64,000 nt of DNA from Candidatus Lloydbacteria bacterium RIFCSPHIGHO2_02_FULL_50_18 (GTDB taxonomy: Bacteria > Patescibacteriota > Minisyncoccia > Phycocordibacterales > UBA6899), in assembly GCA_001821395.1 (NCBI GenBank), contig MHLM01000001.1, positions 128,001 through 192,000 of the forward strand, read 5' to 3'. Both the position numbers and the translations under genes were made by a program. Shown here one piece after another: positions 1,825-11,239 of the stretch; positions within the stretch are counted from its first letter, which is position 1; the number at the start of each line of letters is the position of its first letter. The notes below the pieces were generated by a model. That model was not told the origin of the DNA. It saw only the letters and a list, made by a program, of their open reading frames with translations, and did no database searches.

Positions 1825-2280
1825 ATGGAACGTAAGGAAACGATAGAAAAACTCATCGCCTCAATACACAAGGAGACTCGGGCTGCGGGGCTTTTTGTGC
1901 ACACTATATCCGAGATCACTGGGATACATTCTACCGACATACGCTGTTTAGAATTTTTAAGTGAGGCACACTCCGCGACTGCCGGAGAACTTGGGAGGGC
2001 TACGGGGCTTACGACAGGGGCAGTCACTGCGATGATCGACAGGCTTGAAAATGGGGGCTTTGTAAAGCGCGAAGCGGATAAAAAAGACCGAAGAAAGATC
2101 ATCATCAGACTCCTGGGAATTCCGAAAAAGCTCAAATTGGTACGGGAAATGTTCTCAAAGCAAATACCCGACATTCTCGCTGAGTACAATACGGCGGAAT
2201 TACTATTGATTGCGAACTGGAACATAAAAATGGCCGCCGTATTTCACGAAAAAATAAGTAAACTCAAAGCAAAAGACTAA
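1825..2280 (+). CDS. MarR-family transcriptional regulator
   Basis: 151 aa with a winged-helix segment (TGIHSTDIRCLEFL..ATAGELGRATGLTTGAVTAMIDRLENGGFVKREADKKDRR) characteristic of MarR. Divergently placed from the efflux operon. Confidence 0.75.
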   Translation: MERKETIEKLIASIHKETRAAGLFVHTISEITGIHSTDIRCLEFLSEAHSATAGELGRATGLTTGAVTAMIDRLENGGFVKREADKKDRRKIIIRLLGIPKKLKLVREMFSKQIPDILAEYNTAELLLIANWNIKMAAVFHEKISKLKAKD

Positions 2281-2586
2281 CATCGCTTATATCTTTATTA
2301 TATACGTCTCCGCCATGCAGCGCTTCACAACAAAAACGACATGCGACGTATCTCTTGAATTTATAGGCAACTGAGCCCATTGATCGGGTAATGCCTCGTG
2401 AGACCTCGGAAGCGTATTCTCGCATCGGTTTCCCGTCTTTTGTGCTAAGGTGTCTCGGTTGAGGCCCTCTTGGACGAAATGGGCTTCTGCACAAATGCTG
2501 AAAACCACGTGTGCTCGGTGCGACAAATTGCTATCTTGGCAAAAAAACGATAGCCTTCGAACAGAGCCTGCTGACTGGGGTCATCA

Positions 2587-2822
2587 TGTCATCAATGAAA
2601 TCGGAGTTCCTCAATCATGCAAAATCAATGCTGGAACAGAAGCATGGGAATGTGCTTACGGACGTCGAAAAGCAACTAGTGCTTCAAGCATTTACGGCAT
2701 GGGAGTCACGGTGGAACGATAAGTCGCCGTCATGCACGCTTGATTGCCAGTGGCCGACATTTTCTCAAGAGGAAAAGTGCTCTACAGTGGAACGATTTTG
2801 CAATTCGTATATAAATCCGTAA
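2587..2822 (+). CDS. small hypothetical protein (about 78 aa from internal Met MSSMKSEF...)
   Basis: Only open frame in the 2.3-3.1 kb gap; a weak terminator-like hairpin follows at 2825-2860. No recognisable domain. Confidence 0.2.
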
Positions 2823-2916
2823 ACGAAAGCCGCCGCACAAGAGTGTGGCTTTTTATTTATTTGCTTAATTCAAAAAATAAACATCGTGTCGTGCTAATCG
2901 GTCACTTACGATTTCA

Positions 2917-2946
2917 TGAACGGCCTCTCGGTCATACGAACCTATT
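2917..2946. repeat. 28-bp direct repeat, copy 1 (gcctctcggtcatacgaacctattctcg); copy 2 is at 3867-3896 next to tRNA-Gln
   Basis: 25 of 28 nt identical between the copies. Each contains a T-arm-like hairpin (TCGGT-7 nt-ACCGA). The copies flank the gene at 3147-3815. Confidence 0.55.
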
Positions 2947-3146
2947 CTCGCACTCTGCCTTTCGAAGTGCTGGATGACTCGGTCGCGGATAATTCCTTGT
3001 GAGACGTTGTAAGGATATTCTCACACCCCCTTCACCTCTTGTGCTGATGGGAGTCGGTCAGTAAATATCCCAGAGATTCTTGCTTGCTAAACACAGTGAG
3101 TTCGAGTAGTCTTTGACGCAGAACATTGTTGAGGTAAGGGGTAGTC

Positions 3147-3815
3147 ATGTTGATATATGCCGTAATTGGTACGCTTGTGGTCGCACTGCTCATCTTCTTG
3201 GCGTGCCGTTATTTTCGAAATCATTGCCTCGAGTGCAAAAAGAGGACTGACTGGGACAAATATGACTCCTGCAAAGCGTGCAATGCGGAGCACGAAGCAC
3301 GGGTGTCAAAGCACCGAGAAGAAATGACGGGGCGCATGATTGCGGTCACCCATGAAGTACTTGCACAATCAAGGGCAGAAACGGAAGAATTCGGTTTTAG
3401 TGATTACGATTTCCTCGATAGACCCTGCATGGTCTGTTCGCCTGGCCGGACTACTAGTCACCGAGAACTCTTTCGAGAGCGTGGTCTCGCGGGTAATCCG
3501 CAAGCATGCCAAGATTATTATTGGAACACTCACGTTCCCCTTGCAAGAAAGGCGCACAAAGATCGCGAGTCAAAGAAATTTTGGAAGCGCTGGCTGTACA
3601 TCCCACCGACAAAAGAGGAGGAGGAAGCGGTCAGTCGAGTGAGCTGGTGGCTAAAGAATGCACTCAGTGCGGGTCGTGACGATCTTGCCCAGCTACGCGA
3701 GTACCGGACGTATCACGAAAAGCCTGACCATTGGATGGACATGACTACCAAACAACTCATGGAGCGCCGACTCTCGCGCGCAAAGAAGGCACTAGATTTA
3801 AATATTGATCGGTAA
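3147..3815 (+). CDS. hypothetical protein with N-terminal TM helix and CxxC-x14-CxxC zinc-ribbon-like motif
   Basis: 222-aa ORF; MLIYAVIGTLVVALLIFLACRYF is a TM helix, followed by CLECKKRTDWDKYDSCKACN. No family recognised. Confidence 0.5.
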   Translation: MLIYAVIGTLVVALLIFLACRYFRNHCLECKKRTDWDKYDSCKACNAEHEARVSKHREEMTGRMIAVTHEVLAQSRAETEEFGFSDYDFLDRPCMVCSPGRTTSHRELFRERGLAGNPQACQDYYWNTHVPLARKAHKDRESKKFWKRWLYIPPTKEEEEAVSRVSWWLKNALSAGRDDLAQLREYRTYHEKPDHWMDMTTKQLMERRLSRAKKALDLNIDR

Positions 3816-3866
3816 TGTTTATTTCGGGGCCATTAGCGCCCCTTTTTGTTATACAAAATATCTTAT

Positions 3867-3896
3867 GCCTCTCGGTCATCCGAACCGATTCTTGAT
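3867..3896. repeat. 28-bp direct repeat, copy 2 (tRNA-Gln-proximal)
   Basis: gcctctcggtcatccgaaccgattcttg lies immediately 3' of tRNA-Gln on its coding strand. It matches the copy at 2917-2946. Confidence 0.55.
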
Positions 3897-3899
3897 AGC

Positions 3900-3968
3900 T
3901 GCGGGACTTGGAGTCGAACCAAAATTGACGGATTCAAAGTCCGCTGTCCTACCATTAGACGATCCCGC
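3900..3968 (-). tRNA. tRNA-Gln (anticodon TTG)
   Basis: Reverse complement reads GCGGGATCG..GCGGA-CTTTGAA-TCCGT..TTTGG-TTCGACT-CCAAG-TCCCGC-A. Cloverleaf has a 7-bp acceptor, anticodon loop CTTTGAA and T-loop TTCGACT. Confidence 0.8.
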
Positions 3969-4046
3969 AATAACAGGATAATAGCATTTTATATACGAAA
4001 GACAAAAAAACCGCCGTTACTACGGCGGTGACTGCTTCAACCGATA

Positions 4047-4475
4047 TCACGAATCGCACAATGTCCATTTTGCAGGATTATTCGTATGCTTTGATTGCGT
4101 AATTACCGCCCATTGTGGATCACCATGATTGTGAACGGGGGTAATCGTCTGCAGTGTGTATTCACCCATTTTCTGACTCATGTCTGACCTAAAAACATCA
4201 TCATTGGTGATAGTGCTCGGGTCCCTCTCCGGATGAATACTCGCAAAGAATTCCCTTCGCCAGCCGCGGAGGTCCCCTGTCACAATTGTTCTCTGTACAA
4301 AGATGAATTCGGGACCTGCATTGCAAATGAAATTATAGCGGTGGCCCGTCCCGTCTTCGATCAGGGAAGCATAGGGCGGCAGATTCAGGAAGATGTCTCT
4401 ATTGATCACGGGGTACTCCCCTAGGATGGTGTTTGCATCTCCAGAAACCATAATACCAAATATGTATTTTGGCAA
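4047..4475 (-). CDS. hypothetical protein, paralog A of a tandem pair
   Basis: 142 aa. Shares a motif block (FxFVQRTIVxxxxxGW ... GxPxAVITQ) with the next gene. A hairpin plus T-run terminator lies at 3988-4020 on the minus strand. Confidence 0.5.
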   Translation of the reverse strand: MPKYIFGIMVSGDANTILGEYPVINRDIFLNLPPYASLIEDGTGHRYNFICNAGPEFIFVQRTIVTGDLRGWRREFFASIHPERDPSTITNDDVFRSDMSQKMGEYTLQTITPVHNHGDPQWAVITQSKHTNNPAKWTLCDS

Positions 4476-4545
4476 CTATATATAAAAAATTCACCGCCGA
4501 AATTCGGAGGTGAATGGAGGGTGAAAAGTAAAAAATTAAGAGTGC

Positions 4546-4920
4546 TCAACTCTTAAACCAATCGCGGGGATCGTTCACCATGAACTTCTGAGTGACGATC
4601 ACCGCTTCCGGATTTCCTTCTCGATCACGGACGATTACTTCAACATAAAAAGCACCATAATTTTCCCGCACATCCATCTTGAGCATATCCCCTTGTTTCA
4701 AAGCACGAGGATCTGCATTCACGAGACAAGCATTTTCTTGCTTCAGCCAACCGTTAAAGTGGCGGATAACAATAGTGCGCTGTACATACAGCCGCTGCTC
4801 GTCGATGAACGCCAGGACCGCAAGTTCTTCTCGAGTACCGATTTTACAAATAGTATCGAGCGCAAATACACCGCGAAATGATTCCATCTTTGCCTCTTCT
4901 TGAGGTGGAACAAACAACAC
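4546..4920 (-). CDS. hypothetical protein, paralog B of a tandem pair
   Basis: 124 aa. LYVQRTIVIRHFNGW ... GNPEAVIVTQ aligns with paralog A. A terminator hairpin (TTAAGAGTtgagcACTCTTAA plus T-run) follows the stop. Confidence 0.5.
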   Translation of the reverse strand: MLFVPPQEEAKMESFRGVFALDTICKIGTREELAVLAFIDEQRLYVQRTIVIRHFNGWLKQENACLVNADPRALKQGDMLKMDVRENYGAFYVEVIVRDREGNPEAVIVTQKFMVNDPRDWFKS

Positions 4921-4958: not shown

Positions 4959-6032
4959 CTACTTCCCTTCTCCGGCAACTTTAATAAGCGCTAATTCTAT
5001 CGGGAGCGTCGGTACCGTACTAAATCCGATCTCACGGGTCGCATCGAGAAATGCATAGAGTACATGAGAGTTGATCTTCTTTTCGGGAGAATTTGCCAAT
5101 CGCAACAGAAAAACGAGATCATCAGGAGTGAACTCATCTTTGTAATGACCTTCGGCGTTTTTGTCATAACGCAGCATGAGCGTCGCACGCATCTTTTCAA
5201 GAATGAGTCTCAAGTAGACCTTCATATCAACGTGTTCATCTTTGGCACTTTGTATCGCCGACAAACCGTCGGAAATATTTCCTGACTCGATGGATCCCAG
5301 AACGCGGTTCACAAGATCATGCGTCGGTGCTCCGACGATGCGAGAAACGGTGTCGACATCAAGCCGTCGGTCCTTCGCGGCTACCAGCACTTTTTCAAGT
5401 ACCGAAAGCGTATCGCGAAACGAGCCGTCGCCAAACATCGCAATGATGTCTGCTGAAGGACTGTCGATTGTTACCTGCTCCTTTTTCGCCGTATCGAGCA
5501 CATATTTTTTTAATTCATCGAGAGTCGGATCACGAAACACAAACGACTGGCATCGTGAGATTATGGTATCGGGGAGCTTATCTCTATCGGTGGTCGCAAG
5601 AATAAATACCGCATGCGCGGGAGGTTCCTCCAGAGTCTTGAGGAGTGCATTGAATGCTTCCTTGGTGAGCATGTGTACCTCATCGATAATGTAGACCTTG
5701 TACGGGGATTCGAATGGCATCGAGCGTACCGACTCACGAAGCTCGCGAATGTCGTCAATAGAACGATTTGAGGCACCGTCCATCTCATAGAGATCCGACG
5801 GTTTACACCCAATTTCGGCGGCAAAGATACGCGCAACGCTTGTCTTGCCCGTTCCTCGGCCTCCCGAAAAAAGATAGGCATGAGAAATAGATTTATCCTC
5901 AATCTCACGCAAGAGTATAGAAACAACCTCGTGCTGTCCCTGCACGTCTTCAAACTTACTGGGTCTATATTTCCGATATAAAGCGAGCTCGCTCATGTGA
6001 AGAGTATAGCCTGTCTGATACACCTTCTGCAA
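4959..6032 (-). CDS. dnaX: DNA polymerase III clamp-loader subunit (gamma/tau DnaX-like, possibly delta-prime); true start probably the internal Met at about 5996
   Basis: YRKYRPSKFEDVQGQHEVV N-terminal motif, Walker A GGRGTGKTS, Walker B YIIDEVHML and sensor region ISRCQ are all typical of DnaX. Confidence 0.6.
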   Translation of the reverse strand: MQKVYQTGYTLHMSELALYRKYRPSKFEDVQGQHEVVSILLREIEDKSISHAYLFSGGRGTGKTSVARIFAAEIGCKPSDLYEMDGASNRSIDDIRELRESVRSMPFESPYKVYIIDEVHMLTKEAFNALLKTLEEPPAHAVFILATTDRDKLPDTIISRCQSFVFRDPTLDELKKYVLDTAKKEQVTIDSPSADIIAMFGDGSFRDTLSVLEKVLVAAKDRRLDVDTVSRIVGAPTHDLVNRVLGSIESGNISDGLSAIQSAKDEHVDMKVYLRLILEKMRATLMLRYDKNAEGHYKDEFTPDDLVFLLRLANSPEKKINSHVLYAFLDATREIGFSTVPTLPIELALIKVAGEGK

Positions 6033-6104: not shown

Positions 6105-6323
6105 CTAACAAACGTCAGGGCCGTGGCTTCCGCAACAAAGCTCACCGAGCGCCTCATTCGTTGACGCCTGAATAGCGTCTTTGTGACAGCATGATTCTGC
6201 AGTTTTGCCGCACGGGCATTTTCCATGCTCATCAAGCACCACTTTTTTTTCGTCAGCGGAACATGCGGCAACGCCCTTTTTATCAGACCCTGCACATGCG
6301 CAATCTCCTCCGCAGCCTCCCAT
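6105..6323 (-). CDS. cysteine-rich small protein (13 Cys in 72 aa; metallothionein-like or metal-binding?)
   Basis: MGGCGGDCACAGSDKK..CSADEKK..HGKCPCGKTAESCCHKD..LCCGSHGPDVC. Start overlaps the upstream gene stop (ATGA at 6323), indicating translational coupling. A terminator hairpin lies downstream at 6062-6100. Confidence 0.45.
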   Translation of the reverse strand: MGGCGGDCACAGSDKKGVAACSADEKKVVLDEHGKCPCGKTAESCCHKDAIQASTNEALGELCCGSHGPDVC

Positions 6324-8560: not shown

Positions 8561-11239
8561 TTACTGAACCGGAGGCTGATCAGGCAAACGGAGAAGCGCC
8601 TGATCGAATGCGGAGAGCGGTTCATCTTTCTTTTCCTCTGTCATCAAGCGCGGAAAATCTGCACGCGTGAAAACGAGTGTCGAACCCTGCTCGAGCTTAC
8701 CGCCGATGATCTTCTCGGCGACCTTTTGCTCTATCACCTCTTGGACAGCGCGTGTCATCGGGCGCGCACCCATGTCGGGATCGACACCATCAAGCATGAC
8801 CGCATCGATGACCGTATCATTGATGACCAAATTGATACTTTTTTCACGAAGACGCTTTTGCAGCTTTTTCAGCATGAGTTCTGCTATGCGACGATAATCG
8901 GGAACGGTCAACGGATGGAACAAAATAATGCCGTCGAAACGATTGAAGAGTTCGGGCTTCAGCTTTCCCTGACCGATGATAGTATCAATGATCTCTTTTT
9001 TAACGCTTTCGAGTTCTTTTCCCTCGTGCATTGCCTCGCGTATCTGCGGCGCACCTGCATTCGATGTCGCGATAAAGATCGTATTGCGCGCATTCACCTT
9101 CTTCCCCTGTGCATCATGAAAGACTCCTTCGTCCAAGACCTGAAGAAAGAGATCGAGCACCTTGGTATTCGTCTTTTCAAACTCGTCGAGCAGAAGGACT
9201 CCGTAGGGCTGTTCCTTGAGCAATATTGTAAGTGCTCCGGGTGTTCCATCCATTCCGCCGATCATGCGATCGAGCCCATCATCACCCTGATATTCACTCA
9301 TATCGAGACGCGCCATCGCATTCTCGTTCCCAAAGAACACCGTCGCTAGGGCTTTTGCCGTTTCCGTCTTTCCCACTCCGGTCGGTCCCAAGAAAAGGAA
9401 TGCACCGATCGGTCTGTTCATGTTACGCACACCCGCTCGGGAGCGACGCATGGCATTCGCAATAACTTGAAGCGCCTCCTCCTGACCAACAACGAGTTTT
9501 TGCATAATCGTCTCAAGATTGAGCAATCTATCCCGCTCTTCCTCGCTAATATCACCAACGGGAATACTGGTCTTTTCGTGGATGAATCGCAGCACATCCA
9601 CTTTCTTGACGATGTGCCCTCCGTGCGCAAGCATGCTTGGCGTCAGTTCAACCAAGATATCGATCGCCTTGTCCGGCATGACCCCTTCGCTGAAATAGTG
9701 CTGCGCCCCGCTGATGATCTCAGTGATCGCGGGATAGGTGAAAAAGATGGGATTTCTCCGTTCGGTCTCCTCAGCGACCTCCTCGATGATGCGAACGAGT
9801 GACGCTTCAGCCGGCTCCGTAAGCATCACCTTCTCAAAACGTTTCATGATCGCATTGTTCGGCTCAATGAATTGATGAAATCGGGAATTATCCGCAGTCG
9901 CGATGACTTGAATGAAATCCCCGGAGAGATACGGATCGAGAATGCCGACCACGTCCGCATCAATTGCGAGCGCACCCTGAATAAATCCCGGCAGGTCATC
10001 AATGACGAGAATAATATTCCCCGCCTTTACGGCGTCATTCATGATACGGATAAAAGACGTTTCAAGTTCCTGCTTTGTTTTCATCGTCGCGATGAACGCA
10101 TTCGCATCAAAAGCCATGACCCGCTTGTGCATTAACGTCGGATTGATGTATCCGTTCATGATATCCCGTGCAAAATCCAAGATCACGTCCATTTTACCTG
10201 TGCCTTCTTCACCAACAAGAATAGCATTCGCTTCCTTCGAGCGGGACAAAACGACCTCGAGCTGCTTGATCTGCTCGCTTCCGTAAATGAAGTTAAAACT
10301 CGAACCTCCTCCGATCGCTTCTTTAGTGAGGTCATGACTGAACCGACTGAGCGCATATGCGGAACCGTACGCAAAGTCTGCACCGAACGACGGCGACTGT
10401 CCGAGCGACACCTTACCCCAATAACGTTTTTTCTGTTTTCTTTTTTTGATCTGTCGCTCCACCCACTCGGTCGCTCCGACAAGTTCGCGCTTTCTCACTC
10501 CGAGTCCAAAGAGAAACTGGTAGAAATCCGGATCCAATTCGGTTATTTTGTTTGAAAGATCAAACAGCGTGAAAACTTCACGAAGCTCAGATTCCTTTTC
10601 TGCAAAATTCACGATGGTTGTTCTGTTCTTCAAATACTCTCTGACCGATTCCTCGCCGATGCCGCAACGAGTGAGAATATGCCGTCCATATCGTGAGGTG
10701 GCAAATGCAAAGAGGAGGTCTCCGTGTGCAACGACATAATATATTTCCGCTACCTCGTAATTTGGGATCGTATATGGGGTCTGCGCCCCCACAGCGCCAC
10801 GCTCGAGGAGTGCCTCGACATAATAATAGTAAGAATTGCCGTAGAAGCGAAGCATCTTCATTGTAAGCCAGACCGCAAAAGCCATGAGAAAAATGCCATT
10901 TCCGATAGGATTTTTTGTATCAAGCGGAATACGAGTTCCGCCGACAAAAGGAATGAGGTTCGGAATCGGGGCACTCGTAGGTATCGCGACCTGATCGGCA
11001 CTTGGGACGGTCACCGTATCACCGAAAAACTGCTGATATTGCGTGGGGATAGCGACACCACTCAAAAGCTTCGCCCTGATAAGGGGGGCACAGAGTATTC
11101 CGAGATAGATGATAACGATCGTTCCGCTCAAAACAGAAACCCATCCGCGGATTTTTCTTGATAATACTGCGTCAAGAACGATCGTTTTGTGATAACGCTC
11201 TGCCGGTTCTTTAAAAAAACTGTTATTGAATCCAAGCAT
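8561..11239 (-). CDS. membrane-anchored Hsp100/Clp-family AAA+ ATPase with degenerate D1 and intact D2; no M-domain and no obvious ClpP-binding loop
   Basis: D2 has Walker [10 protein letters not shown], Walker B LLLDEFEK and sensor/arginine-finger regions. D1 Walker A is GEEGTGKM and Walker B is ILVIDDLPG (both degenerate). Two N-terminal TM helices. Start ATG at 11239 lies 2 nt after the TGA of the upstream gene. Confidence 0.6.
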   Translation of the reverse strand: MLGFNNSFFKEPAERYHKTIVLDAVLSRKIRGWVSVLSGTIVIIYLGILCAPLIRAKLLSGVAIPTQYQQFFGDTVTVPSADQVAIPTSAPIPNLIPFVGGTRIPLDTKNPIGNGIFLMAFAVWLTMKMLRFYGNSYYYYVEALLERGAVGAQTPYTIPNYEVAEIYYVVAHGDLLFAFATSRYGRHILTRCGIGEESVREYLKNRTTIVNFAEKESELREVFTLFDLSNKITELDPDFYQFLFGLGVRKRELVGATEWVERQIKKRKQKKRYWGKVSLGQSPSFGADFAYGSAYALSRFSHDLTKEAIGGGSSFNFIYGSEQIKQLEVVLSRSKEANAILVGEEGTGKMDVILDFARDIMNGYINPTLMHKRVMAFDANAFIATMKTKQELETSFIRIMNDAVKAGNIILVIDDLPGFIQGALAIDADVVGILDPYLSGDFIQVIATADNSRFHQFIEPNNAIMKRFEKVMLTEPAEASLVRIIEEVAEETERRNPIFFTYPAITEIISGAQHYFSEGVMPDKAIDILVELTPSMLAHGGHIVKKVDVLRFIHEKTSIPVGDISEEERDRLLNLETIMQKLVVGQEEALQVIANAMRRSRAGVRNMNRPIGAFLFLGPTGVGKTETAKALATVFFGNENAMARLDMSEYQGDDGLDRMIGGMDGTPGALTILLKEQPYGVLLLDEFEKTNTKVLDLFLQVLDEGVFHDAQGKKVNARNTIFIATSNAGAPQIREAMHEGKELESVKKEIIDTIIGQGKLKPELFNRFDGIILFHPLTVPDYRRIAELMLKKLQKRLREKSINLVINDTVIDAVMLDGVDPDMGARPMTRAVQEVIEQKVAEKIIGGKLEQGSTLVFTRADFPRLMTEEKKDEPLSAFDQALLRLPDQPPVQ

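Follow-up and report, generated by a model that had tools for sequence, protein, structure and literature searches.

Does the single gene that lies between two 28-nucleotide (nt) direct repeats beside tRNA-Gln(TTG) mark the site of an integrated mobile element and, if so, where does that element begin and end? The locus lies near the left end of the 64 kb stretch of DNA from Candidatus Lloydbacteria bacterium RIFCSPHIGHO2_02_FULL_50_18 that was analysed here (the window; coordinates count from its first letter). In the original prediction the repeats were taken for the attL and attR sites of a tRNA-targeting integrative element. The 944 bp unit does look inserted at a tRNA-Gln hot spot and, in an array of decayed elements that accreted there, is probably the unit nearest the tRNA; the 28-mer, however, is probably not the crossover site and, judged from its sequence and setting, would instead be a conserved right end of each unit. 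The explanation that we favour, with some reserve, is that elements targeting the 3′ ends of tRNA-Gln genes in Lloydbacteria-like Parcubacteria have left a stack of decayed remnants, all without an integrase, at this locus.

The repeat pair

The features that define the locus are as follows.

3898-3969, minus strand: tRNA-Gln(TTG) (ARAGORN; Rfam 60.8 bits), CCA not encoded
3867-3894, plus strand: 28-mer copy 2 (GCCTCTCGGTCATCCGAACCGATTCTTG), beginning 3 nt past the tRNA-Gln 3′ end
3147-3815, plus strand: cargo gene of 222 amino acids (aa), with an N-terminal membrane helix, CxxC-x11-CxxC and a second Cys cluster
2923-2950, plus strand: 28-mer copy 1, the distal copy (GCCTCTCGGTCATACGAACCTATTCTCG), directly abutting block A (described below)

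The pattern GCCTCTCGGTCATNCGAACCNATTCTNG has exactly two matches in the 64 kb window, these two copies, both on the plus strand, and a repeat search of the window returns the same pair. The absence of any match in 100 dinucleotide-preserving shuffles rules out a chance repeat. The copies are identical at 25 of 28 positions, as predicted, with copy 1 placed 6 nt away from the 2917-2946 first given for it; their likeness is confined to the 28 nt and ends on both sides. No third copy occurs in the window, even with up to six substitutions, which within 64 kb rules out a genome-wide motif, and a dispersed REP-like repeat (repetitive extragenic palindrome) was rejected on the same two copies and the one further instance in a metagenome scan. 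An insertion sequence, a miniature inverted-repeat element or another transposon was likewise rejected, since the repeats are direct, imperfect and only 28 nt long and no transposase is present at the locus.

The 28-mer is trailer-side sequence, not tRNA sequence. Sequence comparison found no tRNA remnant adjoining copy 1, so that an origin from a joint duplication of tRNA and trailer, with later decay of the tRNA, was discarded. A T-arm-like hairpin had been proposed for each repeat. Copy 2 alone folds, with a 5 bp stem and a 7-nt loop (the dyad TCGGT N7 ACCGA); its loop, TCGGATG, is not a T-loop, one base pair of the stem is lost both in copy 1 and in the 28-mer of the relative described next, and none of the 28-mers folds better than shuffled sequence (z of -0.2 to -1.6). 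Neither the fold tests nor Rfam support a structured RNA, and the hairpin has to be given up.

Relatives of the locus

A scan of Joint Genome Institute (JGI) metagenomes for the repeat gave one match outside the species, on contig L090 (with more flank, L109). The gene order of L109 is that of the window (99 aa, 149 aa, 72 aa, dnaX, 138 aa, tRNA-Gln), while its other intergenic DNA cannot be aligned with the window. Directly after its tRNA-Gln stands a 28-mer that matches copy 2 over 26 nt with one mismatch, or at 29 of 31 positions over an extended stretch. Next come a single unrelated gene, for a 232-aa membrane protein, and a block homologous to block A, in the same relative orientation. 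L109 holds no second 28-mer within 10 kb, no homologue of the 222-aa protein and no integrase. A closer relative, L108, has a tRNA-Gln that is 100% identical to that of the window, with a different trailer and no 28-mer after the tRNA. Presence of the 28-mer in L109 and its absence from L108 point to a patchy spread, unlike that of a vertically conserved tRNA signal. A 9-nt match, GCTGCGGGA, after the L109 block was considered as a displaced tRNA end; it has the wrong orientation and was judged a chance match.

Directly upstream of the intact tRNA-Gln(TTG) of L108, which has its own promoter, lies a pseudo-tRNA-Gln (10462-10685; also in the tail of L110) that keeps the 5′ two-thirds of the tRNA, carries an insert of ~31 nt at the anticodon and no longer has a T arm. 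The motif CCCC(T)CGGAATT occurs both in this insert and in the L108 trailer.

The matches listed in a GTDB scan based on dnaX were distant relatives with at most 56% identity. They showed that tRNA-Gln directly after dnaX is the common arrangement in Parcubacteria; no close empty site was among them. The comparison with related genomes that had been proposed as a check supports a mobile origin and changes the anatomy of the element, although it yielded no empty site for the unit itself.

A family of conserved blocks

To the right of copy 1 lies a conserved non-coding end sequence, block A, which is 73% identical to L109 11338-11466 (z of 22.6; alignment score 120 against 27.5 ± 4.6 for shuffles). 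A hidden Markov model (HMM) built from these two sequences found three further copies: block B in the window, a block in the sister-species contig L169 and block C outside the window.

2951-3064, plus strand: block A, 114 nt
2385-2461, plus strand: block B, a shorter copy in the orientation of block A, 600 nt upstream of it
2511-2822, plus strand: small open reading frame (ORF), candidate cargo of a unit B; 103 aa from GTG, or 78 aa from ATG at 2586
2832-2849, plus strand: intrinsic terminator after the small ORF

Block B has an HMM E-value of 5.5e-7 and an alignment score of 61 (27.8 ± 5.0 for shuffles), and the L169 block (10944-11034) has an E-value of 2e-4. Block C is a weak HMM match in the same genome, at about 2154-2263 of contig L091, 2 kb left of the window start, and is 76% identical to the L169 block (z of 19.6). 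Block A is followed by a promoter, the 222-aa gene and a terminator, and block B by the small ORF, for which there is neither a gene-caller call nor a family match, and its terminator; in L109 and L169 the gene next to the block converges on it. Given these differing orientations, a role as promoter or leader is unlikely. No conserved RNA fold was found in the blocks on either strand. The tetranucleotide GCTG directly precedes the start of every block.

The 28-mers and the blocks have a 9-mer, TCTCGGTCA, in common, always on the same strand. It occurs exactly five times in 68 kb, where 0.5 occurrences are expected, and three of the five lie in the two 28-mers and block C. Elsewhere, both exact matches in L169 fall in the block region and one of two in L109 falls in the 28-mer. 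From this distribution the 9-mer may be the site at which a recombinase, no longer present, once bound.

Duplicated tRNA-Gln ends

The last 18 nt of tRNA-Gln(TTG), spanning the 3′ part of the T-loop, the T stem, the acceptor stem and the discriminator, recur on the same strand ~6 kb away with 17 of 18 positions identical (L091 2114-2131, at a window coordinate of about -2062, just outside the window and ~25 nt from block C). Apart from this copy, none of the 18-mers of the tRNA has a further match in 68 kb. A composite of ~6 kb is therefore flanked by direct repeats containing tRNA 3′ sequence, and the efflux and MarR genes to the left of the locus lie inside this tRNA-end bracket.

Within the 944 bp unit the sole trace of the tRNA is the short sequence TTCGAAGTGCTG, which holds 4 nt of it.

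2961-2972, plus strand: TTCGAAGTGCTG, an 11/12 match to TTCAAAGTGCTG; 13 of 2000 shuffles reach its score
2287-2321, plus strand: 35-mer repeat, with a 34/35 match at L091 2042-2076, ~2.1 kb left of the window start

TTCAAAGTGCTG consists of the native trailer and the last 4 nt of tRNA-Gln and is preserved at the distal tRNA fragment, ahead of the 18-nt copy. On this resemblance, TTCGAAGTGCTG may represent the distal junction of unit A; its GCTG is also the junction mapped between the sister-species contigs L169 and L175. The 35-mer (TTATATCTTTATTATATACGTCTCC[C/G]CCATGCAGC) forms a further pair, bracketing ~4.4 kb that contain the tRNA fragment, block C and the ABC-FtsX-MFP-MarR genes.

Polymorphic insertion in a sister species

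Ten contigs of a sister species carry the same left flank, with efflux-MarR genes of 82% DNA identity to those of the window and MarR proteins that are identical among themselves and 87% identical to the MarR of the window. In L175, L172 and L178 the 3′ end of tRNA-Gln(CTG) stands three times in tandem after the MarR flank, ahead of the intact tRNA. Each fragment carries its trailer and terminator hairpin (L175 600-1165), and together they form a classical graveyard of att sites.

L169 and L175, with identical MarR proteins, have the same sequence up to ...GCATTTGCTG. Beyond this point L175 continues with the body of tRNA-Gln(CTG), whereas L169 continues with foreign DNA that bears a block and a 452-aa gene, which is not recognizable as an integrase. 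The two contigs constitute an occupied and an empty site, whose junction coincides with the final tRNA nucleotides (GCTG on the strand read). The block marks the edge of the DNA that is present in one and absent from the other and thus belongs to the inserted DNA. L172 and L177 represent further alleles; the structural alleles with the same MarR protein number at least four. With the three tandem tRNA fragments and the several alleles, the sister-species MarR flank is a proven hot spot. One sister-species allele has a tRNA-Gly where tRNA-Gln otherwise stands.

The cargo gene

The gene between the repeats is a real, conserved ORF encoding 222 aa, as predicted. It is accompanied by its own signals.

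3084-3112, plus strand: promoter of the 222-aa gene (TTGCTA, 17 nt, TAGTCT), read from the sequence
3826-3842, plus strand: intrinsic terminator of the 222-aa gene (GGGGCCATTAGCGCCCC, then a T run)

The predicted hydrophobic N-terminal helix is present; the cysteine motif proved to be C27xxC30-x11-C42xxC45, not the CxxC-x14-CxxC first described, and a further pair, C94xxC97, is likewise invariant. The 222-aa protein recurs unchanged as a hypothetical protein of Candidatus Lloydbacteria bacterium RIFCSPHIGHO2_01_FULL and belongs to no Pfam or PHROG family. Its AlphaFold model is all-helical and of mediocre quality (pLDDT 71, pTM 0.45), and no match to it was found in the PDB.

The family is tiny and patchy. 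Seven relatives of 51-64% identity were found among 5.8 billion proteins, and an exhaustive profile search of 1.84 billion representatives brought the number to about twelve. Six homologues occupy as many contexts, all with the same promoter (TTGCxA, 17 nt, TAGTCT) upstream and a terminator: the window, a contig of P0002 (beside RibD_C and DUF2200 genes), L006 (beside an rve-type DDE protein), L007/L008 (DUF5671), L167 (NusB-Nudix) and L168 (a secreted protein). In the other contexts no tRNA-Gln, 28-mer or block lies beside the homologues, and no flanking repeats were found in L006 and L007. Orthologues of the neighbouring 134-aa gene in other samples reach 84% and 79% identity, yet no orthologue of the 222-aa protein above 64% identity was found, close relatives included, so that the closest relatives probably lack the gene. 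The population also holds an allele with a 98-nt deletion (3447-3544), visible in public data as two frameshifted products, P0008 and P0014. The patchy family, the missing close orthologue and the deletion allele identify the 222-aa gene as accessory. A '163-aa variant' in L102, L103 and L105 is not an allele; the DNA there is the same, with the gene called differently.

Searching phage and mobile-element collections with the protein, as had been suggested, led nowhere: IMG/VR, INPHARED and PLSDB hold nothing related to the cargo, and with no Pfam or PHROG match either, a phage or plasmid origin was rejected. The block patterns are absent from IMG/VR, and matches there to a 16-mer core lie within coding regions of high-GC contigs and were judged to be chance. 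In L006 (1394-2840) the homologue, 55% identical, stands beside a 412-aa rve (DDE) protein with two copies of TTTCGGTATCATTTTG between them, probably a transposon end abutting the gene; this rve protein belongs to another genome and lies outside the gene module.

Variation within the population

Contig L102 is 99.94% identical to the window over 3.5 kb and departs from it exactly at the best-conserved sub-block of block A; its positions 3587-3643, 57 AT-rich nucleotides, correspond to the window left of 3037, with two single-nucleotide differences just inside the junction. Contigs of several assemblies end alike, at 2387-2391 (the edge of block B), 2939 (in copy 1), 3051 (in block A) and 3146 (1 nt before the ATG). 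The recurring ends could reflect structural variation in the population or re-assemblies of the same reads. Together with the divergence of L102 they hint at recombination at the blocks, which could also be an assembly artefact.

Proposed origin and its alternatives

In the explanation that we favour, each unit would comprise a left-end block of ~75-115 nt, one cargo gene under its own promoter and closed by a terminator, and the 28-mer as its right end. Unit A (~2973-3897; block A, the 222-aa gene and copy 2) would be the newest and the closest to the tRNA. Site-specific recombination at the very last nucleotides of the tRNA (GCTG on the plus strand) was probably its way of entry, which would have pushed older DNA outward: 18 nt of native trailer and then copy 1, which would be the right end of an older unit B (~2385-2968; block B and the small ORF). 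The stack of ~6 kb would also contain block C and the ABC-FtsX-MFP-MarR genes and would reach its outer end at the 18-nt copy of the tRNA 3′ end. The recombinase would have acted in trans or have been lost. Two features make the 28-mers likelier to be equivalent right ends than the two ends of one element: L109 has only the proximal 28-mer, and the TTCGAAGTGCTG remnant precedes the block. With its cargo and block beside a lone proximal 28-mer, L109 appears to fit a reading as neighbouring units better than one as a single element.

Several observations weigh against this explanation. No recombinase was found within 10 kb on either side of the locus, beside any block-bearing locus or among the ten window ORFs of 280-413 aa, and IMG/VR and the phage and plasmid collections hold no relatives. 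Among 16-21 contigs there is neither an empty site nor a circular junction for unit A; all long contigs of the population have the identical arrangement, the unit being fixed, and there is no compositional anomaly at the locus. The distance from 28-mer to tRNA end varies among instances (3, 5 and 18 nt), the GCTG core alone is too short for significance, in block B the left third is missing, and no 28-mer was seen at the right end of a putative unit C. The efflux-MarR genes within the 6 kb bracket are the syntenic flank in the sister species, and for this reason the outer bracket may be the result of a rearrangement rather than of one insertion. The prediction that no integrase remains was borne out by domain searches of the unit, its neighbours and the window ORFs. 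The unit contains no integration or transfer genes, and no recombinase domain was found in the 222-aa protein, its neighbours or the flanks of L109 or L169.

A single 944 bp element, with crossover inside a 28-mer attB, the two 28-mers as attL and attR and block A as an attP arm, would account for the direct-repeat geometry, for the position of copy 2 only 3 nt from the tRNA and for the gapless contact of copy 1 with block A, as expected of a core and its arm; the lone 28-mer beside tRNA-Gln in L109 resembles an attB, and the dyad of copy 2 is like a recombinase core site. We nevertheless regard it as unlikely. One of the three mismatches between the copies would fall in the 7-nt overlap and another breaks the dyad, trailer and GCTG remnants stand between copy 1 and the block, L109 has cargo and block without a distal 28-mer, and the closest relative, L108, lacks the 28-mer after an identical tRNA. 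Moreover, the sole junction mapped for a block-bearing insertion lies at the tRNA end and not in a 28-mer. That same absence from L108 also counts against the proposal that nothing here is mobile, in which the 28-mer and the block would be conserved DNA or RNA elements that act in cis around tRNA-Gln (protein-binding sites, or transcription or processing signals) copied by local duplication, with ordinary gain and loss producing the differences in genes. This proposal gains from the identical population contigs, the normal composition, the missing recombinase and the conservation of the 28/31-mer and the block between the window and L109 beyond that of neutral intergenic DNA. It is made decidedly improbable by the presence/absence polymorphism at the tRNA end in L169 and L175, which contains the block, by the tRNA 3′-end fragments that accompany the blocks, by the differing orientations of the adjoining genes, which make a promoter or leader role unlikely, and by the lack of a conserved fold in 28-mer or block and of any Rfam match.

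A cassette system, in which single-gene units delimited by block and 28-mer are shuffled at tRNA-Gln by a putative recombinase, with the logic of an integron and other sites, is the least probable of the explanations considered. Two or three tandem units of one gene each, the same frame around a different gene in L109, the departure of L102 at the start of the best-conserved sub-block and the recurrence of contig ends at block edges all agree with it. Neither an attC-like hairpin nor an IntI-like gene is present, however; the cargo genes have promoters of their own, homologues of the 222-aa protein occur elsewhere without block and 28-mer, and the evidence for shuffling consists of one contig end and of assembly breaks that may be re-assemblies of the same reads. 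That tRNA-Gln-anchored single-gene cassettes of Lloydbacteria-like bacteria, each with a ~115-nt block and a 28-mer sharing TCTCGGTCA, are exchanged between strains and species by a putative recombinase encoded elsewhere seems to us very improbable as well. If it were true, such an array would represent functionally integron-like gene capture, with new sites, in minimal genomes.

Neighbouring genes

Two genes separate tRNA-Gln from dnaX, and a regulator gene lies on the other side of the locus.

4047-4887, minus strand: paralogous hypothetical genes of 134 aa (4047-4451) and 113 aa (4546-4887), between tRNA-Gln and dnaX
1825-2280, plus strand: MarR-family regulator, left flank

The two hypothetical genes had been regarded as an accessory signature. 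They are indeed paralogues, of about 23% identity, but genes in this position are conserved in L108 and L110 (two each) and in L109 (one); they are lineage-conserved and lie outside the island. Among the matches listed, 113/134-aa genes between dnaX and tRNA-Gln are found only in the Lloydbacteria-like lineage, and in many Parcubacteria tRNA-Gln follows dnaX (4959-6032 in the window) by ~10-130 nt (loci L010-L039). Upstream of dnaX, a 72-aa cysteine-rich and a ~150-164-aa lysine-rich protein are kept in the window and in the distant relative (window 6105-6323; L109 8613-8831); neither protein has an assigned family.

Comparison with known systems

That elements integrate at tRNA genes, then decay and accrete, is textbook biology, and to that extent the finding is largely ordinary: the locus is most likely a familiar type of genome scar, in bacteria that have been little studied. 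It puts on record a hot spot for integration at tRNA-Gln in the Candidate Phyla Radiation (CPR), in which mobile elements are poorly known, and the 28-mer and the block provide recognizable boundary sequences with which an intact parent element and its recombinase can be sought. The units are unusually small, with one gene each; should they prove to be exchanged, they would constitute a compact gene-capture mechanism in organisms with tiny genomes.

Integrases that target tRNA genes are said to fall into sublocation classes, with crossover at the extreme 3′ end or in the T-loop, a scheme ascribed to Williams in Nucleic Acids Research in 2002. The 18-nt repeat over the 3′ part of the tRNA and the L169 junction at the last tRNA nucleotides agree with such sites, whereas the identity between units runs into the trailer (the 28-mer) and not into the tRNA, and no integrase is present. 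With integron cassettes the locus shares tandem single-gene units, a conserved boundary and one fixed chromosomal anchor; it differs in having no attC-type hairpin and no IntI or attI, and in cargo that has its own promoter and terminator and varies in orientation. An identification as integron cassettes was rejected on the insignificant folds of 28-mers and blocks, the lack of an integrase and the conserved cargo promoter.

Conjugative elements of the integrative and conjugative (ICE) or integrative and mobilizable (IME) type are not known from CPR bacteria. Cis-mobilizable elements (CIMEs) are decayed ICE or IME remnants that keep attL and attR and have lost the integrase and transfer genes (PMC5704250). 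The att sites proposed here are candidates read from the sequence, and no parent ICE or IME is known in the lineage; like CIMEs, however, the units have no integration or transfer gene, possess att-like repeats at a tRNA 3′ end and may have arisen by accretion with further elements.

The ssrA islands of Dehalococcoides are tandem, with 20 bp repeats and conserved flanking sequence; most are 10-30 kb long with a serine-recombinase integration module beside attL, and some units without integration genes were read as cis-mobilizable elements (PMC3146451). Unlike these islands, the units described here are shorter than 1 kb, carry one gene each and are accompanied by no recombinase at any sampled locus, and their inner boundary is a trailer-side 28-mer with no tRNA fragment. 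The likeness lies in the stacking downstream of a small RNA gene in a strain-variable region, in short direct repeats of the 3′ end of that gene (20 bp there and 18 nt here), in the additional conserved sequence around the repeats and in the occurrence of units that lack integration genes.

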